From: Deltaproteobacteria bacterium
GTDB lineage: Bacteria > Desulfobacterota > Desulfomonilia > UBA1062
DNA: 64,000 nt
Assembly: GCA_018436855.1 (NCBI GenBank)
Contig: JAHDKO010000016.1
Coordinates: forward strand, 7,286-71,285
Direction: 5' to 3'
A program made the position numbers and the translations under genes. Shown piece by piece: positions 7,533 through 64,000 of the stretch. Under the pieces are notes generated by a model. That model was not told the origin of the DNA. It did no database searches and saw only the letters and a list, made by a program, of their open reading frames with translations. Every line of letters starts with the position of its first letter. Position 1 is the stretch's first letter.

Positions 7533-7671
7533 GTTTCCTCCGAAGTTTGCCCACAAGACAACTATCCCCGCAGGGAAAAAGTTGTTCCCTGTAGGAATAA
7601 TGTTTGTTTGGAATAATTGAAAGGGAGTGTGCTACGAACTACATATTATGAAGAGTTGCCTTTTTATGACT

Positions 7672-8229: not shown

Positions 8230-8239
8230 GGTAATTCTC

Positions 8240-9313: not shown

Positions 9314-9356
9314 GTCAATCTCCTTTGGTTGGTTTATTTTTATCCTGGACCACGGC

Positions 9357-10436: not shown

Positions 10437-10467
10437 GCTCTTTCTCCTATATGGTTTTTATTATTCT

Positions 10468-19040: not shown

Positions 19041-19150
19041 GTCAAGGTACATCATCCTTACCGTAAGCCGCATACTCTCTACGTATGTGTTGGTATGGGT
19101 GATCCCAGATATAAAAAGGTATTAAAAAAAAACTATATAGGAGGATTATT

Positions 19151-41421: not shown

Positions 41422-42201
41422 TTACTGAAGAATCGAGTAAATTTTCTCGATATCAGCTCCCACGATCTCATCCCCGTTGCCGGTAAACATGGTGGGCGTA
41501 CCCCTTACACCGAGACTGTTCCCTATCTCCAGGGCCTTTTTGATTTTTCCGAGCTGTTTACTGTTACCAGAAACCACTTCGTATTTTTCCCAGACATGAG
41601 AAACGTACTCGTCAAACGTAACCCCATTGCTCAGGATTTTTTTTGCGTTGTCATCTCCATGAATAGGGTACAGGATCATGTTGACCCGTGTGCCGGTATC
41701 ATCAGCGATCTTCTTCAGATTGGCTTCCAGCCTTTTGCAGTACCCACACTTGGTAGAGGTGAATACATAAAGATCATTCTTGATATTCTTACCCGCAGGC
41801 TCGTACTGTGTGAAAACAATCGCATCGAGATTTTCTTTCACGGCACCGAATGTTTTCTTTTTAATGTCCTGCAGCAGATCCATGCCCATCTGCGTCTTAT
41901 AGGAAAACATCGATCCTATAAAAACAAACTCATCCGATACCCACGCAGGCTGCATTCCCGCATACCCGTGCTCAGTTTTATTGAATCCAAGAATGATCTC
42001 GCAAAGACCGCTGGCTGGCCTTGATGCAATGATTTCGCAATTATCCGGCAATGCAACGTGAGTTTTGATATGGTCGATATCCACACCGTCGCATTCATTT
42101 GCATAACAATTTCCAAATGTCACCACGCCCACGATAAAAATAAACCCGATCAAAAAACCTGTTTTTTTCATGCTCTTTCTCCTTTTATTATTAATCATCA
42201 A
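41422..42201 (-). CDS. dsbC: DsbC/TrbB-like periplasmic disulfide isomerase
   Basis: Signal peptide. Thioredoxin fold with TKCGYCKRLE (CxxC). Confidence 0.7.
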   Translation of the reverse strand: MMINNKRRKSMKKTGFLIGFIFIVGVVTFGNCYANECDGVDIDHIKTHVALPDNCEIIASRPASGLCEIILGFNKTEHGYAGMQPAWVSDEFVFIGSMFSYKTQMGMDLLQDIKKKTFGAVKENLDAIVFTQYEPAGKNIKNDLYVFTSTKCGYCKRLEANLKKIADDTGTRVNMILYPIHGDDNAKKILSNGVTFDEYVSHVWEKYEVVSGNSKQLGKIKKALEIGNSLGVRGTPTMFTGNGDEIVGADIEKIYSILQ

Positions 42202-42463
42202 TATCTCCGACCATCTGACTGATTAATTCGCCCTGGTCGTTATTCCCTTCTTTATCAATGTCCTGATCAACTTCCCCGACTTCTCGCGCAGGGCCTAAAT
42301 CACTGTTCACCCCCTTGCAGCTCAGGTACGCTCTCCCTGCGTCACTCCTGAAAAATACCAACAAGGCAAGCTCCGCAACTTCCTTCCTTAATCCCCTGGG
42401 AAGGCTGTTCAGAATCCTTACAACCTCGTTCTGGGTAAAAACGACGTTCAGCCTGACTCTCAT
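42191..42463 (-). CDS. parR: ParR-like centromere-binding protein (partner of ParM)
   Basis: 90 aa immediately downstream of parM with an acidic C-terminal tail. Call rests on gene order and size. Confidence 0.4.
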   Translation of the reverse strand: MRVRLNVVFTQNEVVRILNSLPRGLRKEVAELALLVFFRSDAGRAYLSCKGVNSDLGPAREVGEVDQDIDKEGNNDQGELISQMVGDIDD

Positions 42464-43446
42464 CTCAGCATTCCCATGTTGAACTTGAGGAAACCCCGTG
42501 CGTTTGAGTATTCCGGTGCAGCCGGGACTACAACAAACCCGTCACGATAATTTGCCTTGAAGGCATCCGCTACAAAGTACGCACCGCCACCGGCAATAAT
42601 GAGATGGTCCGATTTTCCCAAGAATTTATTCCACCTGGAGGACCGGATAAACTGAACGAACCTTTCAGTATAAACCCGCGTCAACTCCTTGATTATTTTT
42701 GAAAGGTCATGAGTTTCACCGAAATGCCTGATCTGCCCGTCTTCAAGAATACGGCATATGACCTGATCAGATTCTTCTCTGTCGAATTCCTTCTTGATAT
42801 GAGTTTTAAGATCCTCGGCAATCCTCGATACCCCTTCCTTTGTGAACATGTCGGACCATTCCATAGTAGGCCGACCATTCACCAGACCGAGCACGTCAAC
42901 GGTGTTGAACCCGATATCAAGGATGAGTGCATTGATGTTCATCTTAGAGCGATCAGCTATTCCACTGTTCTCGAAGATATAGTCAAAATATACGCCCTGC
43001 CCCTGAGCCCTGACATCAACCGTTTTGGGAGTGATATTTTGATTGCAGACAGAAATGTTTCCCAGAACACGGGCTATGTTTTTTCGATGATCCCTGTAAT
43101 AACCAAGAGGAATCCCAACGCACAAAACTAAATCGTTGTGCCGATCCTGCGGACGAATATTCTCCAATGCTTTATAGGTAAGCAGCGGAGAAAACCTTTC
43201 CAGAAACTCTCTGTCCCGAGTATCGAAAATGTCCTGGCAAAAAAGAGCATCAGTCCCAAGATGATAGGTATCTTTGCCGACAATGTATGTCTTGCGTCCG
43301 CTTGATTCAAGATCGACAATACCGTGTTTCGCACGACCGATTGCCGTAGGAAACTTCAGTGTCCGAATTGATATTCTATCTCCACGGCGATAAGGTATTG
43401 CTACCTTCACATCACCAAATCCAATATCAAGTCCGATTTTTCCCAC
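42460..43446 (-). CDS. parM: ParM/StbA-family actin-like segregation ATPase
   Basis: Phosphate-1 IGLDIGFGDVKVA and phosphate-2 LILDIGFNTVDV motifs of the actin fold. AAGGAG RBS. Confidence 0.75.
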   Translation of the reverse strand: MGKIGLDIGFGDVKVAIPYRRGDRISIRTLKFPTAIGRAKHGIVDLESSGRKTYIVGKDTYHLGTDALFCQDIFDTRDREFLERFSPLLTYKALENIRPQDRHNDLVLCVGIPLGYYRDHRKNIARVLGNISVCNQNITPKTVDVRAQGQGVYFDYIFENSGIADRSKMNINALILDIGFNTVDVLGLVNGRPTMEWSDMFTKEGVSRIAEDLKTHIKKEFDREESDQVICRILEDGQIRHFGETHDLSKIIKELTRVYTERFVQFIRSSRWNKFLGKSDHLIIAGGGAYFVADAFKANYRDGFVVVPAAPEYSNARGFLKFNMGMLR

Positions 43447-43477
43447 GATTGCCTCCTTATTTTTTTTGATCTCCTTG

Positions 43478-43521
43478 TGCTTATTCTTTGAGAGGGAAAT
43501 AAAACGGCTTCAAAAAAAATG
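43478..43521 (-). promoter_or_regulatory. Conserved element A, copy 6 (upstream of parM)
   Basis: tgcttattctttgagagggaaataaaacggcttcaaaaaaaatg. Confidence 0.5.
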
Positions 43522-43676
43522 AAGGGGATTGACAACCATTAATAAAATAGGTATAAGCGAAAGTCCTATATGGTTTTTGCCCCCACTTGGATAACTGCCA
43601 TGCGGTTACCGGGTGGGGGCTACTCATTTATTCCCCGATTAAAACCGTTCTTATAATACAGTGTAATCGAGAAAGT

Positions 43677-43856
43677 CGTTACACCCCCTGAACGATCATA
43701 AAACGCCACCTTGGAGGGGGTTAAGTGCATGTTTGGGGCATTTTCTACACCCCCCACTTAAAAATCGCACTGAAATATTGTTACACCCCCTGAATGATCA
43801 TAAAAGGGCGACTTAGAGGGGGTAAAGTGCATGTTTGACGCATTTTGAACATGAAA
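43677..43856. repeat. Two 68-bp direct repeats (period 112 bp), each with an internal inverted repeat (ACCCCCT/AGGGGGT)
   Basis: gttacaccccctgaacgatcataaaacgccaccttggagggggttaagtgcatgtttggggcatttt versus gttacaccccctgaatgatcataaaagggcgacttagagggggtaaagtgcatgtttgacgcatttt. Confidence 0.6.
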
Positions 43857-44460
43857 ACTACACTATAATAACAACATAATAACAACATCAATCCCACGGC
43901 GATAGACCTAACCGCGAAAACTACCCTTGATTGCTCATATCGTTTAGCTAATATTCCCTATAGGTATGTTAGAAATAGCATATCAACGGCCATAATATTA
44001 AGAGATCACGCCCTAAAAACCTCCACAATTCATTAGTTGGATGAGAATATGATGCAACATTTAAATAAAATCATATAATCTTCTGTATATATTAAAGTTT
44101 TAAGCAATTTAACCGATAAGATCTTCAGTATGAAAATAGCAGAATATTCGAACCCATCTTTTAGTCCCTCGGAAAATAAAAACCGGACCCCTCTTTCTTA
44201 GAAACTTCGTTTCTAATCACATAGGTAAAAACCTGTAGCGAAATATCACCTTCTTTCACAATTCACCCGCCTTGCCTGTATTGCCAAAATGTGAATAATA
44301 ACAGTCACTTATAAAATTGTGCGTATTTTGGAACAAATCGAGTAATAATACCGTGTATTTCCTGGGCCGCATCTCCTGATGAAGCTGAAATATTTTCCAA
44401 GTGTGATCGCCATACTTACGGACCAAATATTTTCAAATTATTTCAAGTATAATTCAATTC

Positions 44461-44950
44461 AGAGAGATATCGTGGCGTTTATTGTTATGACATTTTTCAT
44501 CGCATGTTTATCGGATCAAGTGTTTCGGATTCATTTTTGAAATAGCATTGGAACATGAGAGTTGACTTGCGATTTGACTTCTTTTGAATCCCCCATGTTT
44601 TCCTCCTGTTTTATTATTGTCGATCAAGCTGATCCCTATGTGATCGCCATTCTTTCGGAATCTAATTTTATCCAAGCATATCCCTCATGTTTTCCGAGTA
44701 AGAGAGCAGTTATGGCAAAGAAAATATTTTCCAATAATCTTGCCATGTTTATCGGAACGAATGTTTCCTTTATAATTTCTTCATGATTTTCTTTTAAGAG
44801 AGCAGTTATGGCGTTTACGTGTTCCCAACATTTTGCCATGGATTATCGGACCCTGTTCTTTCGTGATATTTTTCTTTTAAGATCCCTATAAGAGAGCTGT
44901 TATGGCGTTTAAAATGATCGTATCGGAAATCGCCTGGACTGCGGAACGGG
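44461..44950. repeat. Iteron-like degenerate tandem repeats (~92-98 bp units, 4-5 copies), core AGAGAGCAGTTATGGCG plus TTTATCGGAAC
   Basis: Cores at about 44461, 44700, 44798 and 44890, plus an inverted partial copy at about 44641. An AT-rich stretch precedes them (43860-44460). Confidence 0.55.
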
Positions 44951-45459
44951 GGTTTGGCGATCTTTGGAATTGTTTTTTGGTGGCTTTTTGTTTTGTGCAT
45001 TATTTTGTTTTTTTTATTCGCCGTGTTTTTCGGGGTGGTTTTAGTTTTTCGGTGCATTTTGGTCTGATTTTTCGTCCAAAAATTTTCGCTGTGGAGCCGC
45101 TTCAATCCAACATTCGCCAGCCACGGACGGGCGAAGCCCGTCAAAATATTTTTAGACATTTGTAGATATTTTTCGAGATAAACCCTTAATATATGGTTTT
45201 TTCTTATCCGCGTCTGATCTCTCATCTCTCGCCCATCTTCCTTCGCCTTCTTGATACCCTCTTTATCTTCAGAGGTATTCATCTGATAGTCATAATGTTT
45301 CGGTATATTCTAAAAGCCTTCCTGGTCGTATTAGAGCAACAATTTTAATTTAGCTTGTTATTTTGGTATGTTACGTATTCACTTTTTATTTCGTTCTTTA
45401 TTGGATCGCAATATATCCAATAATTATGGTATGTTATCGTTTTTTTTGCCCTTATTTTC

Positions 45460-45495
45460 TTTTTTGTCGTTTTATTTCCCCTCCAAAGAATAGTG
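45460..45495 (+). promoter_or_regulatory. Conserved element A, copy 7 (plus orientation)
   Basis: ttttttgtcgttttatttcccctccaaagaatagtg, 20 nt upstream of GGAAGGAG and ATG 45515. Confidence 0.5.
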
Positions 45496-45514
45496 AACTT
45501 GGAAGGAGTTATCT

Positions 45515-46063
45515 ATGGACAATACTAAGTCGATCAAATCGAGTAATCCCACGTCACGCAAGAGAGAGGCATCGTCGCTGGACAAATGGATTGAGGCGCG
45601 TATTTGGAGCCATCTCAAGAGGAATTACTTAAACGGAACGCATTATCATATCTCTATTAAGCGTTTACTGACAGAGCTTCGAACCCTCTATGATATTTCT
45701 CCAACCGACAAGTGGATTATTTATAAGATTAAGGCGATCCGTAAGCGTGTATTGCGTAAATGGTATCACGAGAAAACCAAGGTTTTGGATTGGTCAATAG
45801 AGCTTGGTCTGCCTTTTGATTTTCTTTTTCCTCATTATCTCCGTGGACACTTAACCTCGCTGATTACCGCAAGGCTTTTTGCGAGTCTTTATATCGAGAT
45901 GTCGGGGCTTTCCCAGGGTCTTCCTGCCCACATTTTCATAGAGATGACAAGGAAGCGGGAGTTGGAGCGTCGGGAGAAGAACAGGGCTATAGCTCGGCTG
46001 GATGCTCGGGAGCGCAATGCGAAAAAGCAGGTCCATGATCAGGACCCTGACGCGAGTTCTTGA
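45515..46063 (+). CDS. basic hypothetical protein (candidate replication or relaxosome accessory protein)
   Basis: 182 aa, Lys/Arg-rich, directly downstream of the iteron region. No recognisable motif. Confidence 0.4.
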   Translation: MDNTKSIKSSNPTSRKREASSLDKWIEARIWSHLKRNYLNGTHYHISIKRLLTELRTLYDISPTDKWIIYKIKAIRKRVLRKWYHEKTKVLDWSIELGLPFDFLFPHYLRGHLTSLITARLFASLYIEMSGLSQGLPAHIFIEMTRKRELERREKNRAIARLDARERNAKKQVHDQDPDASS

Positions 46064-46152: not shown

Positions 46153-46338
46153 ATGAACAAAAAGAAATATCTCATGGATCAATTTTTTGCGGCCTGTACG
46201 GGCAATGACCGTATCGACACGGGATACCGCCTTTCGGGCAATAGGATGCACAAGTTGAAAGTGCGAATTGTCGCGCAAGGTATTTCTCGCGCCCTGGCCG
46301 CGAAGGATGGCGATCAAGGGGGTGTTGGTCATGACTAA
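46153..46338 (+). CDS. small hypothetical protein (61 aa)
   Basis: ORF after element A with ATGA overlap to the next gene. Confidence 0.3.
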   Translation: MNKKKYLMDQFFAACTGNDRIDTGYRLSGNRMHKLKVRIVAQGISRALAAKDGDQGGVGHD

Positions 46339-46594
46339 CGATAAATCGCAGAAACCACGTTCGCGCAAGAAAGCCAAGGAGGCTGATTTCATCACGCTTC
46401 CTTCCTTTGACGTACACCCGTTTAAGGTTGAGTTGAAGAAGCTCGGTGTACGCAACTGGCAGATAGCGAAGATATGCGGGATATCGTATGGCTACATGAG
46501 TCATATCTTAAACGGTGTTGTTCCCATGCCTGATCGTGTAGCCGAGAAAATCAGCGTATTTCTCACTCAGCGGGGTGTTGACATCGATGCGTGA
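46331..46594 (+). CDS. HTH (XRE-like) transcriptional regulator
   Basis: LGVRNWQIAKICGISYGYMSHILNG is a helix-turn-helix. Confidence 0.55.
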   Translation: MTNDKSQKPRSRKKAKEADFITLPSFDVHPFKVELKKLGVRNWQIAKICGISYGYMSHILNGVVPMPDRVAEKISVFLTQRGVDIDA

Positions 46595-47442: not shown

Positions 47443-47670
47443 ATGGGGTATAGCAGCAGATACGGTTGGGTTCGAATCGGCGTGTATATTTGGCCCTTTG
47501 CGGAATACCGGCAGATCACGAAGGGTCGCTACAAGGGCCTTTACGAGATACTTGTAAACAACAACAAGTACATTGTCACTGCTGACCGGATCAAGTCGTT
47601 CCCTTCTTTTGCGAAAATTGATCTCTCGGGAAATAATCATGTCTCAAGAGATTGCCACCATGATGCATAA
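47443..47670 (+). CDS. small protein, paralog A of a duplicated pair
   Basis: FAEYRQITKGRYKGLYEILVNNNKYIVTADRIKSFP is similar to FVEYREITKGRQKGYYEITALGRKYIVHPKHIVRFP in 48127..48363. Confidence 0.45.
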   Translation: MGYSSRYGWVRIGVYIWPFAEYRQITKGRYKGLYEILVNNNKYIVTADRIKSFPSFAKIDLSGNNHVSRDCHHDA

Positions 47671-48130
47671 CAAGGGGGTATGTATGAACGTCCGCATGAA
47701 CACATTGAGAAATTTTCGGGCGCACACTGTTCAGATCGCAAATATGTTTTGGCTTGCGGCGATAGATCCCGAGAACCCGCCACAGTCGTTCGTTGATTTT
47801 TTTGAAGGTCAGTCAACGGCTGATATGCAGCTCATTTTCGAGGATCTTGAATTACCGGACCTCGATAATTACGAGGATGATGAGTTTGCGCGAGTAGTGC
47901 TTGAGCACCTTGACCTTGCTGAGAAGAATGGCTTTATCGCTGTTCTCAATATCCCGTTAAAGACAGGCTTCACCGAACACGGATGCATGGCCCATCGGGC
48001 AATCACTCATTGCCCCATAATCTATGCGGACACCCTGGATGATCTCATGATCAAGGCTGTTGAGTTGGCCGAAAAGCTGAAAGAGTCAGATCGCCAGGAA
48101 TATGAAGCCGCGATGAGGGATCAGCTATGA
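47639..48130 (+). CDS. acidic hypothetical protein (start uncertain: 47639 or 47660)
   Basis: Asp/Glu-rich (FEDLELPDLDNYEDDEF). Could be a DNA-mimic-like protein, unconfirmed. Confidence 0.4.
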   Translation: MSQEIATMMHNKGVCMNVRMNTLRNFRAHTVQIANMFWLAAIDPENPPQSFVDFFEGQSTADMQLIFEDLELPDLDNYEDDEFARVVLEHLDLAEKNGFIAVLNIPLKTGFTEHGCMAHRAITHCPIIYADTLDDLMIKAVELAEKLKESDRQEYEAAMRDQL

Positions 48131-48363
48131 GTAGTGCGCCTGCCACGTTTGAATACGGTTTAGCTCATGTTCAGAGAGGCTTCCGTACTCAAGTTAAGCC
48201 ATTTGTCGAGTACCGCGAGATCACGAAAGGTCGGCAAAAAGGCTACTACGAGATTACAGCCCTGGGCCGGAAATACATTGTTCATCCAAAGCACATAGTC
48301 AGGTTTCCCGGTGAACTGGATAAACAAGTTAAAAAGAAAGTCAAAAAGGAGTGTTTGTCATGA
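48127..48363 (+). CDS. small protein, paralog B of a duplicated pair
   Basis: See 47443..47670. Confidence 0.45.
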   Translation: MSSAPATFEYGLAHVQRGFRTQVKPFVEYREITKGRQKGYYEITALGRKYIVHPKHIVRFPGELDKQVKKKVKKECLS

Positions 48364-48746
48364 TCGGCACTATACCGCTTATTTTCAGAGTTGCTTACCG
48401 CAACCGGGCTACTGCTGAGATCACATACAGGGTTATCGGCGTTGGGCAGTCGTTTCCAGACATCGGCCCAAAATGGGTTATCATCGGAATTGATCAGTAT
48501 GTCGGTCTCATTGATAAAGGTCGCAAAGTTTTCACAGGTGACATCTATACATTCCTGCACATGACGCATCCAATCACCGTATCATCGAAGCATGGACTGC
48601 GATTCATGCACGGTGATTTTCAACTCAGCGATCACGCTGTCGAATTCGGTCAATTTAAGGGAACCATTTATGAAGAAGATAATGAAGAAGGAGGTCGATA
48701 TGGCTACTCTGTCAACACCATCCCCGGAAAACACAAAGCTGTCTGA
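48360..48746 (+). CDS. hypothetical protein
   Basis: ATG 48360 preceded by AAGGAG. Confidence 0.4.
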   Translation: MIGTIPLIFRVAYRNRATAEITYRVIGVGQSFPDIGPKWVIIGIDQYVGLIDKGRKVFTGDIYTFLHMTHPITVSSKHGLRFMHGDFQLSDHAVEFGQFKGTIYEEDNEEGGRYGYSVNTIPGKHKAV

Positions 48747-50966: not shown

Positions 50967-51899
50967 TCACTTCCCGATCAACAAAGTTCCCAGAAAAGCC
51001 AGCCATCCAAGAACAGTAATCCAGATCAGTTTCCAGGATGTCTTCGTGATCCTCACGATCTCGACGTTACCCGTGTCCAGGTCCTCGACCTTCTGAGCGA
51101 GAAAATGCCCCAAAGCCGTTGGAGTAGTAAAACTCTTGTCGGACAACATCTGCGCCAGGGTTACATCGCTGGCATGTCCGAGAGCAGTTATTACCGGAGT
51201 TTTCATCGCCAACATCTGACGGGCAATTGCCGGATCATCGAATACTTCCAGATTGCTTCCCCCTCCCCTGACCAGGGCAATCAGATCGCATTTGCCGTCA
51301 GCCCGTGAGAGTACAGACACCACAGCGCGAGGATCAGAGAAATCCGTCCTGGTTTCCGTAATCGCGTATCGCTCAACAGCGTTACCAAGTGCGCTCATTA
51401 CGTCCTTATCCACGATCCCGCTTTTTCCGTAGATCATGTTGATCCTGGGCTTTTTCCCTTCTGCGATCATACCGATCAATACACCGCCAGCGTCCTTTTT
51501 CCCGATCCTGACTTTTCGCTCCAAAAGCTCGGCCCTCTCGATGATCCGAGTATCCACCTGACTGCCAGCGGCATCAACCTGGGTAGGAACGAAACTCACC
51601 TGAATGCCGGCAGCTCCCGAAGCCCTCACCATCTCCAGAACTCCCCGAAAGCTGTATGCATATCCCGGCTGCAGTTTCACCCGAATCAGTGCAGGCATCT
51701 TGAGCTTGAGCATTTCCCTGGTTTCCTGATCTACAAGTGAATCATAAAAGAAACCTCGGTAGGATTTGCCGTTACCGTGCTCGTACACTCCCCGAACGAA
51801 CCAGACAGTACCCGTGACAACCCTGGTTGCTTCACTCAGGATTATACGGCTCAATTCTCCCGGCGTGATGATCTTCGGTTCGTTCTTTTTCGCAGCCAT
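50967..51899 (-). CDS. Exonuclease VII large subunit (XseA)-like protein, truncated, with C-terminal TM anchor
   Basis: N-terminal OB-fold region (ITPGELSRIILSEATRVVTGTVWFVRGVYEHGNGKSYRGFFYDSLVDQE) and a core IALVRGGGSNLEVFDDPAIARQMLAMKTPVITALGHASDVTLAQ that matches the XseA RGGGS...GHExD region. C-terminal WKLIWITVLGWLAFLGTLLIG is hydrophobic. Confidence 0.6.
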   Translation of the reverse strand: MAAKKNEPKIITPGELSRIILSEATRVVTGTVWFVRGVYEHGNGKSYRGFFYDSLVDQETREMLKLKMPALIRVKLQPGYAYSFRGVLEMVRASGAAGIQVSFVPTQVDAAGSQVDTRIIERAELLERKVRIGKKDAGGVLIGMIAEGKKPRINMIYGKSGIVDKDVMSALGNAVERYAITETRTDFSDPRAVVSVLSRADGKCDLIALVRGGGSNLEVFDDPAIARQMLAMKTPVITALGHASDVTLAQMLSDKSFTTPTALGHFLAQKVEDLDTGNVEIVRITKTSWKLIWITVLGWLAFLGTLLIGK

Positions 51900-51925: not shown

Positions 51926-52261
51926 TTATTCGATAACCACGAGTGCTCCCTGCTCTTCCAGCTTTTTCTTGGCGAGAAAAGCATTCTCGGAATCGACCAA
52001 TTCCAGAATCTTTGACGGTGTATTTTCGGAAAGATCCTTTGCCTCCTTGAGCCCGAGATTCGTTACCTCGCGAATCATCTTGATAACACAGATCTTAGCC
52101 TTTCCGGCATCCATCAACACAACATTCACCAGTTTTTTCCCGAACAGACGCACGATGACTCCAGGCTTTTCCGCTGCCAGCTTGTAAAACATTTCCTTGA
52201 ATTCCCCATCCTTAATGTTGCCCAGAATCTCGATTGCCTCTGCGTAATAGTTTCTGCCCAT
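51926..52261 (-). CDS. Ribosomal protein bL12 (L7/L12)-like protein
   Basis: C-terminal [59 protein letters not shown] matches the L7/L12 CTD ([27 protein letters not shown]...AEALKKALEEAGAEVEVK). AAGGAG RBS. Confidence 0.7.
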   Translation of the reverse strand: [111 protein letters not shown]

Positions 52262-55865: not shown

Positions 55866-56705
55866 ATGGCTGAAATTGACGGAATTGACAGCGAAGTTCG
55901 GTCATCAACTAGAAGATTATCACTACGGGCTCTCTCAAACATTATGCCCGAAGGCAATGTGAGGGTTGAGTCCGCACAGATTGCCGACCTCGCAATTCTT
56001 GAAGCCGCTGATATTTGTCGCCAGAACCCTGAGAAGAATATTAAGCGGGTAGCCCACCGCCTTGTGCAGCGTTATATCACACAGTTACACTCCGATCCTT
56101 ACCGTTTTCTGTCCCGCGCCACCATAGATTCGGCAGCGTGTATCGAAGACATACTCAAGATTATCGGTCACAAGCCTACACGGAATTTTACCAGCATCAA
56201 TATCACTTTGTATCAGCGAAAGGATCTCAACAGTACACTACGGCACTATCGATACAATGTATCGATTCTTGGCCGGAATATTAAAATCAAATCCTCTCCT
56301 TCGGGCCTTGACATCATGGGTAATTTGCGCTGCTATATCAGACCTGTCGATTTTCCCGGCAACTCAGCGGACGATTACTCGATTAATAATCTCATAGACC
56401 AGCACTCATACAATGAGTGGAGAGACAATCAGAGCGGAAACGAGGCTTCTGAATCTCCTAAAGTCGATCCCGATCTTTTGCTCCATCTTTCGCAATGCAT
56501 CATGTTCCTGAATTCCAACCGCCGTCACTTCCTTATTGAGTCGTTTGGATTATGGGGTTGCGAACAATCTTCCACCTTTGATCTGGCAAAAAAATACGGA
56601 CTGACACCCCGTAATATCAGATACGAAATCGATAAAGCCCTTGCTGAATTGAAAGAGATAATGTCTCGCAACGACGATAAGGCAACCAGTAAGCATAGTC
56701 TGTAA
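55866..56705 (+). CDS. Sigma-70 region-4-like HTH protein (candidate element-specific transcription factor)
   Basis: C-terminal LSQCIMFLNSNRRHFLIESFGLWGCEQSSTFDLAKKYGLTPRNIRYEIDKALAELKE matches the sigma70_r4 pattern (ReR.vl.lrfGL.g.e.tl.Eig..fgvTreRIRQIE.kAL.KL). Confidence 0.5.
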   Translation: MAEIDGIDSEVRSSTRRLSLRALSNIMPEGNVRVESAQIADLAILEAADICRQNPEKNIKRVAHRLVQRYITQLHSDPYRFLSRATIDSAACIEDILKIIGHKPTRNFTSINITLYQRKDLNSTLRHYRYNVSILGRNIKIKSSPSGLDIMGNLRCYIRPVDFPGNSADDYSINNLIDQHSYNEWRDNQSGNEASESPKVDPDLLLHLSQCIMFLNSNRRHFLIESFGLWGCEQSSTFDLAKKYGLTPRNIRYEIDKALAELKEIMSRNDDKATSKHSL

Positions 56706-56747: not shown

Positions 56748-57035
56748 ATGCATAGCAAATCCGAGAGTGTGGTGGCATTCATCAAGGAGTTGACAGAAAA
56801 GCATCAGATGGAAAAAATTGTCCTTATGTCCCGTATTCAGGAATTAGAAAAAGAAAACCAGCAGCTCCGGGAACAATCCGAACCATCGCTGCTTTTAAAC
56901 AAGGGGGTTATTCCCTTTATCCAGTTCTCGTTCAAATTTATCGAGGATATCATGAATACTCTCGATGATGAATCCCGCGCCAAAATACAGGAGATATTAA
57001 ACAAAGAGGACGAACCGGATCATTCCTCTGTCTGA
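56748..57035 (+). CDS. coiled-coil hypothetical protein
   Basis: GGAGGGTATC RBS. Heptad-like QELEKENQQLREQ. Confidence 0.4.
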   Translation: MHSKSESVVAFIKELTEKHQMEKIVLMSRIQELEKENQQLREQSEPSLLLNKGVIPFIQFSFKFIEDIMNTLDDESRAKIQEILNKEDEPDHSSV

Positions 57036-57721
57036 TTATTTTTTTTGTTTTTTTTGAGAATTAATATTTCGCCCATTTCACGTGCTATTTCCCTGATATG
57101 TTCTTTTTTAACAAATGTATTTGTTTCAACGATACTTTTCACTCCGACAATTCTTTTAATGCATTTGAAATCGCCCCATGGATAATAATATCTCAATAAA
57201 GCGGGAGCCATACTGATTGTGTTCCTGCTGACAAATACCGAGCACGGCCTGAGCACTTTATCGACATAAAACATCATGGAGCTTCCGCAACTATATCCAT
57301 CCCGCGAGTTCCATCGATGTCTCATCATGATTGCTACCCATCCGTTCAAATCCACGTGTATTTCCTGGGCGGTAATGCGTACAACGGTTCCCCGCACGGC
57401 TTCATGGACCTTCTCCCTCCACCGCCTATAATTATAATCGTCCTCGATATACGTCAAACAATCCGGTAATCGCTGTCGCACCGCCTTTGTTACCTCCGCT
57501 GGCAACCTATCAAACTCTATGGGTATATAAGAGTGATTCCTATAAAACCATGCCTTGACAGTACCATTGTTAATTTCCGCATACGCCTCACCCTGGAAAT
57601 GTTCGGAAAGCACTGTTGCCAAAGTAAGTTCCAGACCGTCCTTGACAATTTGAGGGTTGGTGTTTCTCCATTTGCACACATCCGTTATGAATGATTCAAA
57701 TGTAGGTCCTGCGGCTTCCAT
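57020..57721 (-). CDS. hypothetical protein (233 aa)
   Basis: ORF divergent from 57792 with shared element A copies between them. Confidence 0.4.
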   Translation of the reverse strand: MEAAGPTFESFITDVCKWRNTNPQIVKDGLELTLATVLSEHFQGEAYAEINNGTVKAWFYRNHSYIPIEFDRLPAEVTKAVRQRLPDCLTYIEDDYNYRRWREKVHEAVRGTVVRITAQEIHVDLNGWVAIMMRHRWNSRDGYSCGSSMMFYVDKVLRPCSVFVSRNTISMAPALLRYYYPWGDFKCIKRIVGVKSIVETNTFVKKEHIREIAREMGEILILKKNKKNNQTEE

Positions 57722-57733
57722 CGTATTATTTCC

Positions 57734-57790
57734 TTTTTTGTCGTTTTATTTCCCGCACAAAGAATATGTTCTTTGAGGGGGAAATAAATT
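57734..57790. promoter_or_regulatory. Conserved element A, divergent pair (copy 9: one minus-oriented and one partial plus-oriented copy, back to back)
   Basis: ttttttgtcgttttatttcccgcacaaagaatatg followed by ttctttgagggggaaataaattg. Serves divergent genes 57020..57721 and 57792..58067. Confidence 0.5.
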
Positions 57791-57791
57791 G

Positions 57792-58067
57792 ATGAAAAAA
57801 CAAATCCTCGCAGTGTTGACACTATTGTTTCTCGTATCGATTATCGCAGCCATTGGGTGTGAGAACAGTATTCGTGAGTATTTTCCGAGGTTTGATGGTA
57901 ATCTTTATGCTTCGGGGAGTATTTTTCTTTTTGGGTTCACATATGCCATGGTCGTTCGGAACTTTATTATTTTTTTTATTTCAATGGCAGCGGCCATTGC
58001 TACACCGTGGGTTGCCGAGTGGTTTCACTCTCACTGGCCGTACATAATCCACATAATGACAAATTAG
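57792..58067 (+). CDS. small membrane protein
   Basis: Three hydrophobic helices. ATG 57792. Confidence 0.45.
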   Translation: MKKQILAVLTLLFLVSIIAAIGCENSIREYFPRFDGNLYASGSIFLFGFTYAMVVRNFIIFFISMAAAIATPWVAEWFHSHWPYIIHIMTN

Positions 58068-58077
58068 GAGGATTGAC

Positions 58078-58821
58078 ATGGGTAAGGGCTCTCTTTCATC
58101 GGCGGCAGTAATACCCATTGGTGACTCGAAAAAAACTACTCGACGGCTCCCGCATCTGATTGACGCGATGAGCGATATTCAACAGTATTATATTTTCGAA
58201 TCAACGGGTCAGGAAATACCTCATGAATTTCTCACCATAAGAGATTCTCTCGGATTTTTTAACACAGGTTTTGGAGCCGGTTTTTTTGAGGGGTTAATGT
58301 TTTCCATCCTGCTCACGATATGTATGCCACTCGTAATCGACACACATGCTATGAACGTCCTGACTACGGCGATCCCGTTTTTGGGCTCTCCCTGGTTTCT
58401 CATTTTCTTTTCCATAACCCCGGTTCTCTTCGCATGTGCGCTGTGCTGCTGGATGGGTAAATACTATGTTGGCAGCATAACCAAACGGGCAATCGATAAT
58501 TTATTGCTTGGCCGCGCCACTTCCCTGTTTCTCACAGGTTTTTTGCTGTTCACCATCCTTACAACAGTGGGTGCGTTGTTAACTCCTGCCAGGGCATACA
58601 GTGCCGGCATGTATCTGGCGGGAGTGTTTCCTGCTGGATCTATGATTCCGCAGACTGTGTATGATATTTTGCTGAACCTTCCTCCGATCATGGTGCGCCG
58701 GGCTATTCATCAGGGGATCATATTAATAACAGGTGTTGCGCTTCCCTACCTCACAATATGGGGAGTCGTTTATTTTCGAGATCGTTATATTTCGTACCAA
58801 AATTCCAAAATAGGTCACTAG
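58078..58821 (+). CDS. polytopic membrane protein (possible TM domain of a split type IV coupling protein)
   Basis: 247 aa with 5-6 predicted TM helices, immediately upstream of the ATPase. AGGAGG RBS. Confidence 0.45.
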   Translation: MGKGSLSSAAVIPIGDSKKTTRRLPHLIDAMSDIQQYYIFESTGQEIPHEFLTIRDSLGFFNTGFGAGFFEGLMFSILLTICMPLVIDTHAMNVLTTAIPFLGSPWFLIFFSITPVLFACALCCWMGKYYVGSITKRAIDNLLLGRATSLFLTGFLLFTILTTVGALLTPARAYSAGMYLAGVFPAGSMIPQTVYDILLNLPPIMVRRAIHQGIILITGVALPYLTIWGVVYFRDRYISYQNSKIGH

Positions 58822-58830
58822 GAGAATAAC

Positions 58831-60171
58831 ATGTTTAAAAGAAAATCTGATCGCATTCTTGTCGGGACCGGGAAGATGCTCAATAAATTTGGGAAAGAGC
58901 TTCCCAGGATTATGTCGTTGGGAATTCCTAATGCATATCGCAAATCGCACATGTTCTGCTTCGGAACCACCAGGGTAGGAAAGACAAAGCTGATTGAAAC
59001 CCTCATTGAACAAGATATACGCGCAGGCAGATCGGTACTGCTTCTCGACCCAAAGGGTGACATTGAAATATTCAGCAAGATCGTCCAGGTTGCATCAGAG
59101 GTTGGTCGTGAAAACGAGATCACGCTGGTCACTCCTATATTTCCGAATTATTCCGGGAAACTCTCGCCATTGACGTATTACTACATGCCCGAGGAAATTG
59201 TAGGTCATATCACGAGTGGTATTCAGGCCAAGGAAGAGTTTTTTGTCAATATTGCATACGAGACAACGCTTGTGATCGTGCTCTCGCTGTTGCTGTTTGC
59301 CGAGCACGAAGGTAAGCCCTACCGGATCAGCATACAGGAGATTAAGGATCGCGCATCATACCAGGGGTTGTGTGAGTTGCAGGACCGCTTAAACAATCTC
59401 CCCTACTCCGACAAGAAAGCGGACATTCTCTCTACTCTCGATCAGGTATTATCCTCTCCGCAGGACTATTTTTCCAAAGTATCATCTTCTCTGCGTACCA
59501 TGCTCACCACATTATCGACCGGCAGCATGAGGCAGATCATTGGTGGTACAACCCAGAACGAGTTTATTCATGCGCTTGAAGTCGGAAAAAGCGTGATCAT
59601 GGTTGTTCAGTCCGGTGCTCTTCTTACCGGGAAAACATCGCACACAGTATCCAGAATGCTCGTATCGATGATCCAAACATTTGCCGGCAGGCGGTTTGCC
59701 TCTGGCCGCACTGTCACCCCCCCATTGTGCGTGTACATGGATGAGGCCGCAAACCTCATGTATCATGGTGTCGAGGATTTGTTCTCTAAAGCAGGAGGCG
59801 CAGGGGTTTGGCTGCATGCGTTTTCACAGTCTCTTGCCGATCTTGATGATGCCATTGGCCCCGCTGCTGCCCGGAGAATTCTCGATAATACCAACACCAA
59901 AATTTTTATGCGTGTCAATGATCCCAATACCAGTAAGTACATCTCGGAGTACGCTGGAGACATCAATCGCTTTTCTCCAGTGCTTTCACTCGGCGGCGGG
60001 ATGAACATCAGAGAAGTTGATGAGCCCTTGATTCGCCCGGAAGAGGTCCAGAACCTAAAAGAAAGGGAGTTTTATCTTTTCTCGTTCGACGGCGCGTTCA
60101 AGGGGACAGTACGCACAGTCAAATCTCCCAAGCAAATAATCGAATTTCCACAGGTGGAGGTGAACCAATGA
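58831..60171 (+). CDS. traD: FtsK/HerA-superfamily ATPase, probable type IV coupling protein (TraD/VirD4-like) soluble domain
   Basis: Walker A FGTTRVGKTKL near the N-terminus and Walker B VYMDEAANL about 255 aa downstream. That spacing is typical of T4CPs. No N-terminal TM region. Confidence 0.5.
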   Translation: MFKRKSDRILVGTGKMLNKFGKELPRIMSLGIPNAYRKSHMFCFGTTRVGKTKLIETLIEQDIRAGRSVLLLDPKGDIEIFSKIVQVASEVGRENEITLVTPIFPNYSGKLSPLTYYYMPEEIVGHITSGIQAKEEFFVNIAYETTLVIVLSLLLFAEHEGKPYRISIQEIKDRASYQGLCELQDRLNNLPYSDKKADILSTLDQVLSSPQDYFSKVSSSLRTMLTTLSTGSMRQIIGGTTQNEFIHALEVGKSVIMVVQSGALLTGKTSHTVSRMLVSMIQTFAGRRFASGRTVTPPLCVYMDEAANLMYHGVEDLFSKAGGAGVWLHAFSQSLADLDDAIGPAAARRILDNTNTKIFMRVNDPNTSKYISEYAGDINRFSPVLSLGGGMNIREVDEPLIRPEEVQNLKEREFYLFSFDGAFKGTVRTVKSPKQIIEFPQVEVNQ

Positions 60172-61634
60172 TATTTTATATCCTTATGATTCCACTTATT
60201 ATATTGTTAATTTACCTCATCTTCTGGGGTGATAAATTATTCCCTGATAAGCGGGTACAGCAAGCCGAAACCGGGGCAGTGACACTTGAAGAATTGGCAA
60301 ACAAGCTCTGGCTGAAACGAGAACGGGAGCTTGAGGATGAGTTGGCATCAAAAACCAAAGAGTCTATAATCACGCTCGATCCTGTCGTTCCTGTCGAGGC
60401 TGTTCCTGAGCCCGAGCAGCCTACTCCCAAGGAATCACCTACCCCCGCAAAACCGAAACCGGATGTTCCTGCTCAACAAGTGGATCAGGAAGTGAGTTCT
60501 CTGGTTCCCGAGATTCCTCATGCAGAAAACAATAAATGGAATCATCAGGAGCTGATCGACTTTGAAAATAACTTCGTCAGTCAATACAGGAATATCATTG
60601 CACAGTCTCAGCACATCATTCCGCTGCAAAAAGTGATGGAGATTCTTGATACTTATGGAGATCAGCCTTCCATTGTCTCTATGAATGATGATGATGAGTA
60701 TAAAATTCTTGGAAGTCATTACGCCACTTTCACCCAGATAACATTACTGCAACACTCTCTCAATGTTGTCTATGAGCTTGGAAAAATAATCGAAGAATCC
60801 GGCTCTCGTGATGCGAAATATTCCATGGGAAAATATATTCTTATGTGTCTTGGACACGACATCGGCAAGATCACCGAATTTCTGTCCAGTGATTATATTA
60901 CTGGAAATCATCCCATTATTTCTGCGGGTAAAATGATGGGCATACTTCCCCCAGGCACTCCGGGCAGGGATGATATTATAAACGCGATCAGGAATCATCA
61001 TGTAAGGAGTGCCAAAAATAAATCCACAATTTTACTCAGACAGGCCGATTCCAGGGCAAGAGAATACGAAGCTGAGTCCGTATCCGTTGAAAAGGCCGTC
61101 CTGGTGCGAGATCTCCTGACAGACGACCCAAACCCTGAAGCAACGAAAATTAAAAAGAAGCCCAAAATCACTGAGGCCGTTGATTTGTCTTGGGTTGATT
61201 GGGACGATGTTATTTCAAAAATTGATGAAAATATAAATGTTCCTAATGAAAACAAGTGGGTAAACGCAATTTCGGTTAGCGACGGGTACATTTACATAAA
61301 GCCTGTTCTCATCAATAAAATTATATGGCAGCAGGCAAAAGAAAAAGAAATTACCGAGTTCACGGTTTATTCCATAAAGGACAGGGAGCGGTCGGACGCT
61401 GTATCAAATTCTGTCGCAAATTATTTTCGGGATCAGTACGCTATATCCGAAACCATAAATAGACCTTATTTCACCCGTAAATTCAAACTGGTAGACAAGG
61501 ATAATAATGTTGTAAGGTCAGGTTTTTATACAGCGATCAAGGCTGAAATGTTTAAAACCCCCCTCGATGAACTAGAAGAAAGAAAACTCAATCTCGAATG
61601 GCTCATGAAAATAAAAAACGTTATTCCTGGCTGA
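60168..61634 (+). CDS. HD-domain protein with N-terminal TM helix, candidate MOB_H-type relaxase
   Basis: HD motif LLQHSL...CLGHDIGK (H...HD.GK). An NHHV triad. N-terminal MIFYILMIPLIILLIYLIF is a TM helix. Pro-rich linker. Adjacent to the T4CP as traI-traD are in SXT-like elements. Confidence 0.45.
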   Translation: MIFYILMIPLIILLIYLIFWGDKLFPDKRVQQAETGAVTLEELANKLWLKRERELEDELASKTKESIITLDPVVPVEAVPEPEQPTPKESPTPAKPKPDVPAQQVDQEVSSLVPEIPHAENNKWNHQELIDFENNFVSQYRNIIAQSQHIIPLQKVMEILDTYGDQPSIVSMNDDDEYKILGSHYATFTQITLLQHSLNVVYELGKIIEESGSRDAKYSMGKYILMCLGHDIGKITEFLSSDYITGNHPIISAGKMMGILPPGTPGRDDIINAIRNHHVRSAKNKSTILLRQADSRAREYEAESVSVEKAVLVRDLLTDDPNPEATKIKKKPKITEAVDLSWVDWDDVISKIDENINVPNENKWVNAISVSDGYIYIKPVLINKIIWQQAKEKEITEFTVYSIKDRERSDAVSNSVANYFRDQYAISETINRPYFTRKFKLVDKDNNVVRSGFYTAIKAEMFKTPLDELEERKLNLEWLMKIKNVIPG

Positions 61635-61676: not shown

Positions 61677-61746
61677 AATTACAGAGTGTTTTAAAAGGTG
61701 TGTTTTTAAAAAGGTGCTTCATAAAAAAAATTGGAAGGAGATTATC

Positions 61747-62244
61747 ATGGCAGAATACATTCAGTTGGTAGGGGTTCCAAAAAGCATTCCCAATGAGGTG
61801 GTGATTCCCATCCCGTCGAATGTCCCCCCTATTGTGCGGCGTATCGTTTACGGCAAATTGCAGTCGGCACTCAAGCGAAACACCAGGGTTGTGTATCAGG
61901 ACATGAACGAAACCAAGATCGCCCTGGACCTTGCCATTCAGATGGAGAAGGCTACTTCGCTGCTTTTGGGCCGTGTCGGCATGAACCCGGAGGCTGTGGT
62001 CCCATTCATTCGCCAGTATTTCACAACGCTCGAAAGCATGGGCGAAATGACCAAAGCCGCATGCAAAAAGGCTGGCATTGATTACAAGGAGCCCAAGGGC
62101 CTTGCAATTGCCAGAAAAATAAATACCGAGGGGCAGGCTCCCGCAGATGATACGGAATCTGTCGAGACAGAATCTGCCGAGAAATCTCAGCCTGCCGAAA
62201 CGGAGTCCAAAGTTAAGGAGAAGCAGACAAAGGCAGCGGGGTAG
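61747..62244 (+). CDS. hypothetical protein (165 aa), acidic C-terminus
   Basis: GGAAGGAG RBS and ATG 61747. Confidence 0.45.
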   Translation: MAEYIQLVGVPKSIPNEVVIPIPSNVPPIVRRIVYGKLQSALKRNTRVVYQDMNETKIALDLAIQMEKATSLLLGRVGMNPEAVVPFIRQYFTTLESMGEMTKAACKKAGIDYKEPKGLAIARKINTEGQAPADDTESVETESAEKSQPAETESKVKEKQTKAAG

Positions 62245-62248
62245 TACC

Positions 62249-63193
62249 ATGAGCCGTATCCTGCAACCAAGATCAAAACGCATGCGGCTCCATGTGAGTT
62301 TTGATAATGTGTGGGCCGCATGCCTTATTTTGACTCCCTTTATTGGCTTGATATTGTCCGTAGGTGCTTTTGCATCCCAGATGATTACAGATCAGCCTTG
62401 TCCTGCGGAAGGATGCAAGGTGGTCGGCTCGTTCGCAACCTATGGTGAGATCCCTATTCTCCTGGCAGGGATTGTCCTGTTCGCCCTGCTCGTTGTGAAC
62501 GGGATCTGGTGTTGTTTTCATGGCGAACGGATCGACCGTATAAACAAGTTTTTGAGTTGCTTCGACATCACTCCGCACCGGGTTGTTATTATCCTTCTCG
62601 CGTCATCGTTCGCGCTTGAGGGATATTTAGTTGCTGTTCAATACTTTGCAGCTCGTGCGTTTTGTCCTTTCTGCATGTCCGTGTTTGCCGTAATTGTTCT
62701 GACGGCAATATTCTACGAATTTTATACCCGGTCCATGGTCATTCCTCTTGTATCGGCAGTATTTATAGCAACTTTTTTAGGGAGTGTTTTTGTATCACCA
62801 ACAAGATCAGACATAATTTCTCTGCCTGATCTTGTTGAATCGCAGATTCGCAAAGGTTCTCCTTCGGGAACATTCTATCTCATTTATGGACAGGACTGTT
62901 CTCATTGCGAAGATATTATTGGTTACTGTAAAGAATTCAATGGAGACATTGATGTACGCTTATGCCCTGTTGAAAAATCAAAACCGCTGCTTGACGCTCT
63001 TGATATAGACAGTGTTCCGACAATGGTTATCAATACTCCTGATCATGTGGAGATAATTGTTGGAAGTAGCAAGATTATGGAGCGCATCAATTCATCGATA
63101 AATCGGTCTGTGTTGGATTACACACTTCATAATCAATCATTTCTTACGGAAGGTGACGGCATATGCAGCAAGACTTCTCCATGCATAAATTAG
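62249..63193 (+). CDS. VKOR (vitamin K epoxide reductase)-like membrane domain fused to a thioredoxin-like domain
   Basis: TM-embedded CPFC and a C-terminal CSHC motif in a Trx-like region. About five TM helices. Confidence 0.6.
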   Translation: MSRILQPRSKRMRLHVSFDNVWAACLILTPFIGLILSVGAFASQMITDQPCPAEGCKVVGSFATYGEIPILLAGIVLFALLVVNGIWCCFHGERIDRINKFLSCFDITPHRVVIILLASSFALEGYLVAVQYFAARAFCPFCMSVFAVIVLTAIFYEFYTRSMVIPLVSAVFIATFLGSVFVSPTRSDIISLPDLVESQIRKGSPSGTFYLIYGQDCSHCEDIIGYCKEFNGDIDVRLCPVEKSKPLLDALDIDSVPTMVINTPDHVEIIVGSSKIMERINSSINRSVLDYTLHNQSFLTEGDGICSKTSPCIN

Positions 63194-63780
63194 ACAACAA
63201 TCCTGTTGCTCATTGCAGCGGGTGTCCTCTCCAGGGCGAAACTATTGTTCCGTATCTACATTCCAGGGCATCAGGGGGGATTATGATCGTAGGCGAATCT
63301 CCAGGGCATACGGAAATAGAAATCGGTCAACCGTTTGTTGGACGAGCTGGTAAATTGCTTAGGGACAACATTCAGGCTGCTGGTATTCCGTTGGGCCATG
63401 TGTTTATTGCCAATTCAGCCCGGTGTATGATTGATAAAAATCGTCTTACGGCTCGTGATATCAAGGATGTTCTAAGGCATTGCCGCCCTGCCCTTGTCTC
63501 TGCCATTCATGAGTACAAGCCGTTCCTGGTTCTCGCCTTGGGCGATATTGCGATGTATCAAATATTGGGAATAAAAGGAATCACTCAACAACGAGGCAAG
63601 GTATTTTACTCCGAGGAATTCGACTGTGGGTGTATGCCTCTTTTTCATCCCGCTTATGTTCTTCGGGGCAAACCGTCAAGGGAACCGGTATTTCTCCGGG
63701 ATCTCAAATGGGCCAAAATGCATGTCTATGTGAAACCACTGACAATGCATCAAGTCATCCAGGAAAGGAATCTTTCATGA
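63163..63780 (+). CDS. Uracil-DNA glycosylase, family 4 (Fe-S)
   Basis: GESPGHTEIEIGQPFVGRAGKLL matches the family-4 GE(A/S)PG...PFVG.AG motif. FHPAYVL matches the HPS/A motif. N-terminal CSGCP contributes cluster Cys. Confidence 0.75.
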   Translation: MQQDFSMHKLDNNPVAHCSGCPLQGETIVPYLHSRASGGIMIVGESPGHTEIEIGQPFVGRAGKLLRDNIQAAGIPLGHVFIANSARCMIDKNRLTARDIKDVLRHCRPALVSAIHEYKPFLVLALGDIAMYQILGIKGITQQRGKVFYSEEFDCGCMPLFHPAYVLRGKPSREPVFLRDLKWAKMHVYVKPLTMHQVIQERNLS

Positions 63781-63980
63781 GCCGCAAAATCGTCAACATT
63801 GAAAAATTGGTTGAGTTGTTTAGCGATGCAGGCTGGACCAAATACAAGGTTTACCACTGGACAAAGCGTGAAGAGAACCCCTTGCCACATCGGAAGAACG
63901 GCAAATGCCTGGAATTTGATCTGGAACAGGTCTACAACTGGTGGGACGGTCTTCCATCCTCCAACTTTGATTGTTCTTGA
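63777..63980 (+). CDS. small hypothetical protein (67 aa)
   Basis: ATGA overlap with the UDG stop. Confidence 0.3.
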   Translation: MSRKIVNIEKLVELFSDAGWTKYKVYHWTKREENPLPHRKNGKCLEFDLEQVYNWWDGLPSSNFDCS

Positions 63981-64000
63981 TACTTTCTCATAAACAAGTT

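Follow-up and report, generated by a model that had tools for sequence, protein, structure and literature searches.

The 2.07-kb gene-free stretch at positions 43447-45514 of a 64,000-nt window (the whole stretch of DNA that was analysed, from a Deltaproteobacteria bacterium) lies between the leftward parMR and transfer (tra) genes and a rightward operon led by the gene of a 182-aa protein. We read it as a composite cis-acting hub and give this reading an even chance of being right: its larger part (module 2) would combine an origin of transfer (oriT) with binding sites for an accessory protein, and its smaller part (module 1) would hold the parMR promoter together with either a hairpin RNA unit or a nic-type hairpin. 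Judging from the comparison with related loci, the region is built of two separable modules, one (43447-43632) that goes with parM and another (about 43660-45514) that goes with the gene family of the 182-aa protein. The window as a whole is, by its predicted gene content, part of an integrative conjugative element (ICE) of sulfate-reducer-type bacteria. A first-pass annotation had proposed the region as a candidate oriT, partition centromere (parC) and/or iteron-type replication origin (oriV). Of these, oriT is the best supported, a classic parC is not visible, and an iteron oriV finds no support. The coordinates of all features are collected in Table 1.

The case for module 2 starts from its conservation. 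An exhaustive HMMER search recovered six distant homologues of the 182-aa protein (P0122-P0127), with 26-39% identity over the matched stretches and 23-37% in the alignment. Upstream of P0123 in L028/L030 (related loci carry such labels throughout), a 2.8-kb gene-poor region is collinear with the window, showing paired repeats, array units, a T/G tract, a mini-hairpin block and a promoter in the same order. Six collinear blocks of module 2 are 69-79% identical there, whereas the adjacent protein is 39% identical and barely aligns as DNA. Locus L034 (P0127, protein 25-31% identical) has little sequence identity left and yet keeps the order, namely two 103-bp C6/G6 units, an M2-M1 lattice, an A-poor tract, a GC-GAA hairpin and a promoter. 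The non-coding DNA is thus better preserved than the protein gene beside it and is therefore under selection.

The same comparison bears on the non-coding nature of the region and on its position as a cis-acting hub between parMR/tra and the rightward operon, both of which had been annotated before and are borne out. No open reading frame (ORF) inside 43447-45514 has a match in the family library scan. Short ORFs do occur on both strands, among them a lysine-rich one of 155 aa on the minus strand, and could be taken for a decayed coding sequence or a degenerate, functionless insertion. We find this scarcely credible: across elements the region is at least as well conserved as the protein gene next to it, similarity to relatives shifts from one frame or strand to another, the spacing rules are kept across four lineages, and neither family matches nor a DNA match in the plasmid collection were found. 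The 155-aa ORF itself was rejected as a gene by the coding test and has no counterpart in L034. Other searches were equally unproductive: Rfam (region and whole window) and a tRNA scan gave nothing, the plasmid collection contained nothing similar to the window's ParM either, consensus promoter and terminator scans returned counts at shuffle level, motif scans of the viral collection yielded chance matches only, and a metagenome scan with a three-sequence alignment retrieved only the already known loci plus L030.

That the two modules are separable follows from a Fic-family gene, absent from the window, that ends 55 nt before the hairpin of module 1 in L022 (gene at 3-635) and starts beside the paired repeats of module 2 in L034 (gene at 3-368). 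Its 3' end thus abuts the former and its 5' end the latter.

Within module 2, a bipartite array carries two motifs, M1 and M2. The sequence AGAGAGC[AT]GTTATGGC recurs at 44701, 44797 and 44891, at intervals of 96 and 94, a degenerate copy stands at 44461, and GCCNN-N5-CGGA is found at 44409, 44502, 44646, 44742, 44835 and 44932. The distance from M2 to M1 is 52-56 bp and that from M1 to M2 is 36-41 bp, adding up to a period of 94-96 bp, and the TGGCG of M1 forms an inverted pair with CGCCA. These four M1 and six M2 sites compare with 0.08 and 1.2 expected from composition-preserving shuffles; two loose matches to the M2 pattern lie outside the array. The four to five degenerate tandem units of about 92-98 bp annotated earlier are therefore present, in the form of bipartite M1/M2 units. 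Tandem Repeats Finder did not detect the 95-bp array because its units are too degenerate. The M2-M1 lattice recurs in L028, L034 and L026, each time upstream of a gene for a 182-aa homologue (25-39% identity). A folding scan found no excess single-strand structure in the array; hence, the units are more likely recognized as double-stranded DNA, and they are probably protein-binding sites of that kind.

Further to the left, module 2 begins with two direct repeats, each having ACCCCCT/AGGGGGT arms 33 bp apart, and with a third C-run between them at 43750. Repeats and arms had been annotated correctly (43677-43856), while the repeat length of 68 bp is corrected here to 72 nt. The repeat pair in L028 shows 69% identity over 211 nt to that of the window and the same 102-bp period, and L034 has an analogous pair with a 103-bp period and C6/G6 inverted repeats. 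The homologous C5/G5 hairpins are strong in both (z -3.9 to -6.2, with L034 at z -6.2). Three loci from independent sequencing runs (L016, L018 and L020) all start at one base inside the 72-bp repeat homologue (CCCCTCTAAGG...), as expected if at least two repeat copies are present there, because these would break short-read assemblies. Promoter-like sites in the 72-bp repeats were treated as chance, being on the minus strand and not conserved in relatives.

The AT-rich stretch that had been noted downstream of the repeats is present at 43870-44370, with a modest bias (35% GC against about 45% for the window), and is the least conserved part among relatives. The corresponding distance lengthens from 717 bp in the window to 961 bp in L028, in which an ORF is called. 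Three further features had not been annotated before, namely the A-poor tract, the mini-hairpin with its 10-bp repeats and the promoter elements at both ends of the region. The A-poor tract lies at the matching place in L028 (A 10%), to which sequence similarity was found, and in L034 (A 6%). The mini-hairpin block is 79% identical to L028 over 80 nt, and its L034 counterpart, CTGGCGGC-GAA-GCCGCCAG followed by a T run, has a different stem sequence that still pairs on manual reading; the automatic alignment scored one of the seven pairs as compensatory. M1-like boxes stand at the promoter of the 182-aa gene in the window and also in L026.

Pfam, NCBIfam and PHROG give no match for the 182-aa protein. 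Its structure model is confident (pLDDT 84) and all-helical and finds no fold match in the PDB, none being winged-helix-like. In L025/L026, the gene of its homologue P0122 (163 aa) overlaps by 4 nt the gene of a 477-aa HD-domain protein, which is 58% identical to a 488-aa HD-domain protein of the window. Directly upstream of P0122 lie array units and a 45-nt promoter element, and after the HD gene come xis, int and an apparent tRNA 3' end (seen by eye). By gene order, L025/L026 is thus a predicted minimal module of cis site, accessory protein, relaxase and integrase, in the usual oriT-accessory-relaxase arrangement. MOBH relaxases of the TraI_2 type carry HD and alternative 3H motifs; within the HD-protein family, which has few homologues and none annotated, the HD and NHH motifs are invariant. 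Taken together, the 182-aa protein is a candidate relaxosome accessory factor that would recognize oriT. A small predicted helix-turn-helix protein (by eye; 46268-46594) follows the 182-aa gene in the window, L034 and L035.

Repeated sites beside an AT-rich stretch, constantly accompanied by a gene for a basic protein, also bring to mind an iteron oriV, in which the ~95-bp units would be the iterons, the 182-aa protein the initiator and the AT-rich stretch the unwinding element; indeed, some ICEs replicate autonomously (PMC4489591). We nonetheless hold this to be very improbable. With a bipartite make-up and a spacing of 94-98 bp, the units contrast with tandem iterons of 17-22 bp at about 22-bp spacing, the AT-rich part is precisely the non-conserved one, and the single DnaA-box-like site of the region is at chance level. 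Moreover, the element is integrative, and the turn in GC skew near 44-45 kb falls where gene orientation switches. The product of 45515..46063, first annotated as a possible replication initiator, finds no support in that role: it matches neither a Rep family nor a winged-helix-like or other PDB fold, and its homologue is in one operon with (and overlaps) the HD gene beside an integrase. Among the ORFs scanned in the 64-kb window, none matched a Rep family.

For the oriT reading of module 2, we picture the following course. The 182-aa protein would bind the five bipartite units as double-stranded DNA and would recruit the HD-domain relaxase candidate, whose gene neighbours that of the coupling protein. 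Structured DNA at or near the nick would come from either the paired C5/G5 inverted-repeat units or the GC mini-hairpin, and the 182-aa gene, whose promoter carries M1-like boxes, would be autoregulated.

Several observations weigh against this. In the window itself, the C5/G5 arms form weak single-strand hairpins (z about -0.4 to -0.9). Module 2 measures 1.8 kb, which is several times longer than characterised oriTs (150-500 bp), and with the plus strand transferred, the rightward genes would enter as the sense strand, unlike the leading-region rule of F-type elements. The 488-aa HD protein gives no match to TraI_2, the MOBH signature, even at E=10 (its only match being HD), and its model is poor, too weak for a fold search. 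In L028, the homologue of the 182-aa gene is directly followed by xis-int, with no relaxase in view. The all-helical 182-aa protein also differs from MobI, the small transfer factor to which its gene corresponds in position and which has been described with beta-sheets (PMC13635750); family searches and this description set the two apart. Finally, each comparison rests on three or four independent lineages, and about 8 kb of the source contig outside the window could hold another relaxase or Rep.

Module 1 has a different set of relatives. The closest ParM relatives (69% and 65% identity, in L016-L020 and L022, respectively) share with the window the order of 45-nt element, opposing promoter, box, hairpin of 42-45 nt and T-rich tail. 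The sigma-70-like promoter has its counterparts in TTGACA-17-TATATA (L016) and TTGACA-18-TAAAAG (L022), at equal distance to the hairpin. The GC hairpin (hairpin A) had been placed at 43580-43615; it is present, with corrected coordinates (Table 1), and consists of GCCCCCAC-26 nt-GTGGGGGC (42 nt), extending to about 19 pairs. It is the sole strongly structured spot in the region. On the plus strand it folds with -16.2 kcal/mol (z -5.3), on the minus strand with -12.2 kcal/mol (z -3.1); its G:U pairs occur exclusively on the window's plus strand. Its inner sequence varies among the three lineages and yet pairing is kept, with compensatory change in 7 of 21 pairs across the window, L016 and L022. 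The tail is moderately U-rich and begins 3-5 nt past the stem; Rfam has no match. Module 1 thus looks like the template of a predicted plus-strand RNA of about 65-70 nt (box, GC hairpin and U-rich tail), which the conserved sigma-70-like promoter would transcribe. Alternatively, by analogy, it could be a MOBH-style nic hairpin. The conserved box would accordingly be either the single-stranded 5' seed of the putative RNA or a nic-proximal sequence 5' of the inverted repeat.

Complementarity of the box to translation starts is suggestive of RNA targeting, without being proof. The box region pairs in 15 of 15 positions with the ribosome-binding site (RBS) region at 10445-10459, in 14 of 15 with the RBS at 19131 and over 13 nt with codons 6-10 of traG. 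The 9-mer CCATATAGG occurs four times, always on the minus strand, versus about 0.5 expected by our own estimate. As CCATATAGG(A/G), the reverse complement of the 43564-43575 box, it is found at 10446, 10079 and 23739 (minus strand) and at 19131, that is, in the RBS or start regions of 10080-10436, of the ORF after it, of traG (codons 6-9) and of 19151-19669.

The closeness of these structures to parM raises the question of a partition centromere, in which the ParR-like protein would bind either the three C5/G5 inverted-repeat units (43579-43851) or the M1/M2 array. Segregation of the excised circular form would fall to ParM filaments, as in srpMRC of SXT/R391, where srpC occupies the equivalent place (PMC4489591). 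The units are directly upstream of parM and show C5/G5 motifs every 33-35 bp on a 102-bp period, and in hairpin A the arms (GCCCC) are conserved around an interval of constant length (26 nt). The promoter element lies between parM and the candidate units, which begin about 130 bp upstream of the gene. Still, we consider this role quite improbable, for the proposed sites and for the proposed segregation alike. Loci L001, L002, L021 and L023 have at least 10 short repeats abutting parM, whereas the window, L016 and L022 have none. The 72-bp repeats and the array adjoin the 182-aa gene in L028 and L034, where the 5-6 kb retrieved contain no ParM. Hairpin A covaries in its inner part, a sign of a folded single strand and not of two protein half-sites. 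The parC-like arrays of L001, L002, L021 and L023, which are more distant ParM relatives, are located at 9300-9890 in L001 (GACGCC..TGACGC), 9400-9990 in L002, 1136-1546 in L021 and 1-660 in L023 (CAGAATAGAT).

Table 1. Features in and around the gene-free region (positions in the window)
Feature	Position	Strand	Remarks
parM (328 aa) and parR-like gene (90 aa)	42191..43446	-	first genes of the leftward dsbC/tra operon
parMR promoter	43482..43527	-	copy of the 45-nt element; diverged copies before parM in L016, L022
Sigma-70-like promoter TTGACA-17-TATAAG	43529..43557	+	faces away from parM, toward the hairpin; read from sequence
Conserved box TCCTATATGGTT	43564..43575	+	identical in window, L016, L022
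GC hairpin (hairpin A), then T-rich tail TACTCATTTATT	43579..43632	+	hairpin at 43579-43620
Two 72-nt direct repeats	43678..43851	+	43678-43749 and 43780-43851; 85% identical; 102-bp period
AT-rich variable spacer	43865..44370		35% GC; begins with 11-bp tandem repeat ATAATAACAAC x2.2
Array, about five bipartite units	44409..44945	+	M1 RGAGAG-N6-7-TGGCG; M2 GCCNN-N5-CGGA
A-poor T/G-rich tract	44950..45110	+	A 10-12%, T 50%, G 25%
GC mini-hairpin GACGGGC-GAA-GCCCGTC	45126..45171	+	then AAAATATTTTT and about three 10-bp repeats (ATTTGTAGA)
182-aa gene promoter region	45347..45514	+	two TTATGGTATGTTA-like boxes 63 bp apart, 45-nt element copy, RBS
182-aa basic all-helical protein	45515..46063	+	candidate array-binding protein, positional analogue of MobI
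45-nt element copies	4306, 17676, 27720, 32204, 41382, 43482, 45468, 46103, 57742, 57767, 61648		

Both ends of the region are framed by an element of about 45 nt (ATTTTTTTTGA..CGTTTTATTTCCCNCNCAAAGAATA) that recurs throughout the ICE. The window has 11 copies versus 0 expected. Each precedes by 20-60 nt the gene that opens a block, and nearly every operon has one. The copy at 43482-43527 (minus strand) precedes parM, a diverged copy at 45449-45492 (plus strand) precedes the 182-aa gene, and a further one follows that gene at 46103. Related copies exist in L016, L022, L025 and L028, and the element also stands upstream of the 182-aa homologues in L025, L026 and L028. The element has the look of a dedicated promoter or of an activator site. 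Two window proteins could be its readers, judging from faint similarities: a 279-aa protein (55866-56705, plus strand) resembles sigma-factor region 4 weakly (RpoS models, E 6e-6, far below the cut-off), and a 233-aa protein (57020-57721, minus strand) has a weak NusA-domain match.

These promoters invite a purely regulatory explanation, in which the repeats would be operators through which the 182-aa and/or the predicted helix-turn-helix protein control the rightward operon, and the hairpins terminators or insulators separating divergent units, with no DNA processing at all. Besides the 45-nt element at both ends and the M1-like boxes at the 182-aa promoter, it can call on hairpin A following the Fic stop codon in L022, on the GC-GAA hairpin followed by a T run and on the putative RNA unit conserved in module 1. 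On balance we regard it as unlikely. Five phased sites over 550 bp, about 570 bp to 1.1 kb upstream of the promoter, exceed a simple operator, and the A-poor tract, conserved in composition only, goes beyond what operators need. The operon link to the HD gene and the integrase in the minimal module points to mobilisation instead. In addition, the element must have an oriT, and no comparable stretch of repeats and hairpins was noticed elsewhere, with the other 0.7-1.4-kb gaps of the window unexamined; the gap upstream of the relaxase operon (57721-58078) holds promoters and a small ORF and is not a second oriT-like region.

Turning to the element itself, the leftward genes run from parM through the parR-like gene and dsbC into an F-type type IV secretion system (T4SS). 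The parM product matches Pfam ALP_N and MreB-like_C, with ParM/StbA homologues found, and the ParR-like protein and its counterpart in L016 share 48% identity. ParM relatives come from metagenome-assembled genomes of Desulfobacterales and other Thermodesulfobacteriota; those in the genome collection (24-42% identity) share no DNA with the region. The T4SS set comprises TraL/E/K/B/V/C/U/N/F/H/G, TrbC and TraT (TraL, TraE and the pilin by reading sequences, the rest by family searches). At 58078-61634, a 247-aa protein, the coupling protein and the overlapping 488-aa HD-domain protein are encoded. A Logan contig (L024) is 100% identical to 61721-64000 and runs on into an excisionase-like gene and a tyrosine integrase (67 aa, assigned by position and size, and 369 aa; L024 2057-3427), and the element is therefore integrative. 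VKOR-like and uracil-DNA-glycosylase genes lie beside the xis/int of this right end.

Downstream of the 182-aa gene, two paralogous ORFs of 75-78 aa (47443-47670 and 48127-48363, plus strand; shared ...YREITKGR.KG.YEI...) are conserved in L034 (6275-6421), as is a 131-aa ORF (48351-48746); the rightward genes headed by that for the 182-aa protein thus form a conserved operon. Other cargo is unusual for a conjugative element, namely a 111-aa protein with a ribosomal L7/L12 C-terminal domain (51926-52261, minus strand; E 4e-20) and a 310-aa protein containing a segment of the exonuclease VII large subunit (50967-51899, minus strand). The left part of the window, with genes at 15862-17019 (minus), 15115-15846 (minus), 13048-13662 (plus) and 5166-9454 (minus), features a hybrid histidine kinase/response regulator beside TraT, a serine resolvase and a block of an SNF2-type helicase and a DUF6094 methyltransferase, which is possible defence cargo.

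Going one step further, the region may represent a previously undescribed oriT architecture that serves a rare lineage of HD-domain relaxases without TraI_2 and is coupled to a parM-linked RNA of about 70 nt, a tentative idea that we judge somewhat doubtful. Its parts would be an all-helical family of oriT-binding proteins, five phased bipartite 95-bp sites, paired C5/G5 inverted-repeat units, the A-poor T/G tract and a mini-hairpin of the GCGAAGC type, a combination that we put forward with the same reserve. Equally speculative is the RNA part, in which a 5' box antisense to the translation starts of traG and two or three other element genes would put an anti-Shine-Dalgarno brake on transfer functions. 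Few families of conjugative elements have known transfer origins and recognition proteins, and nearly all of these come from medically relevant Proteobacteria and Firmicutes. The present analysis provides a testable map of the cis region for an ICE family from Desulfobacterales-type bacteria and names a candidate new family of oriT-binding proteins, as well as a relaxase candidate missed by sequence profiles. With the motif and spacing rules of the M1/M2 lattice and of the 102-bp paired units, metagenomes can be searched for related elements and for small mobilisable islands. Should the small RNA prove real, it would add another example of RNA control next to a transfer origin.

Among known systems, partition loci offer one point of reference. 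In ParMRC systems, parC consists of repeats at the parMR promoter, ten of 11 bp in R1 and four of 20 bp in pSK41. The region shares with these the position directly upstream of parM and differs in having no short tandem array, with inverted arms 33 bp apart and a 102-bp period instead. For the putative RNA, sgm-sRNA, encoded beside the oriT of Salmonella genomic island 1 (PMC9299015), is a parallel insofar as an integrative element would again encode a small RNA next to its oriT; the two are related neither in sequence nor in structure, and the RNA described here is a predicted one.

Hairpin A is best compared with the oriT of the gonococcal genetic island (GGI), which lies between divergent operons of an element with an F-type T4SS and, as a MOBH oriT, needs about six conserved nt 5' of a hairpin of about 32 nt plus about 12 nt 3', the structure of the hairpin counting more than its sequence (PMC6736028). 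Hairpin A on the plus strand similarly has a conserved 12-nt 5' box, a covarying stem and, 3' of it, a conserved tail. An N-terminal membrane helix occurs in a minority of MOBH relaxases (PMC6736028) and apparently also in the 488-aa HD protein (hydrophobic N-terminal consensus; helix 2-24 in the model). On the other hand, hairpin A is linked to parM and not to the 182-aa or relaxase genes, a conserved promoter precedes it, and the HD protein is not demonstrably MOBH.

The closest overall likeness is to SXT/R391 and IncA/C elements. In SXT/R391, the srpMR operon and mobI diverge from a 615-bp region with srpC and oriT, and activator-dependent promoters stand at both ends (PMC4489591); the IncA/C (IncC) oriT lies immediately upstream of mobI (PMC5587640), and the MOBH relaxase TraI is recruited by MobI, which binds oriT (PMC13635750). 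The window repeats this layout: an actin-like partition operon and a small candidate transfer-factor gene diverge from one non-coding region, with element-specific promoters at both ends and putative cis sites within, in an integrative element with an F-type T4SS and a distant HD-domain relaxase candidate beside the coupling protein. There is no sequence relationship, however. The region spans 2.07 kb versus 0.6 kb, its repeats are phased units of about 95-102 bp versus repeats of 13-14 bp, a short-repeat array like srpC/parC is missing, and the HD protein has no TraI_2 match. Because the 182-aa protein is unlike MobI, the HD protein does not match TraI_2 and long phased sites fill a region three times larger, the window is not a member of the SXT/R391-IncA/C family, with which it shares the same divergent plan.

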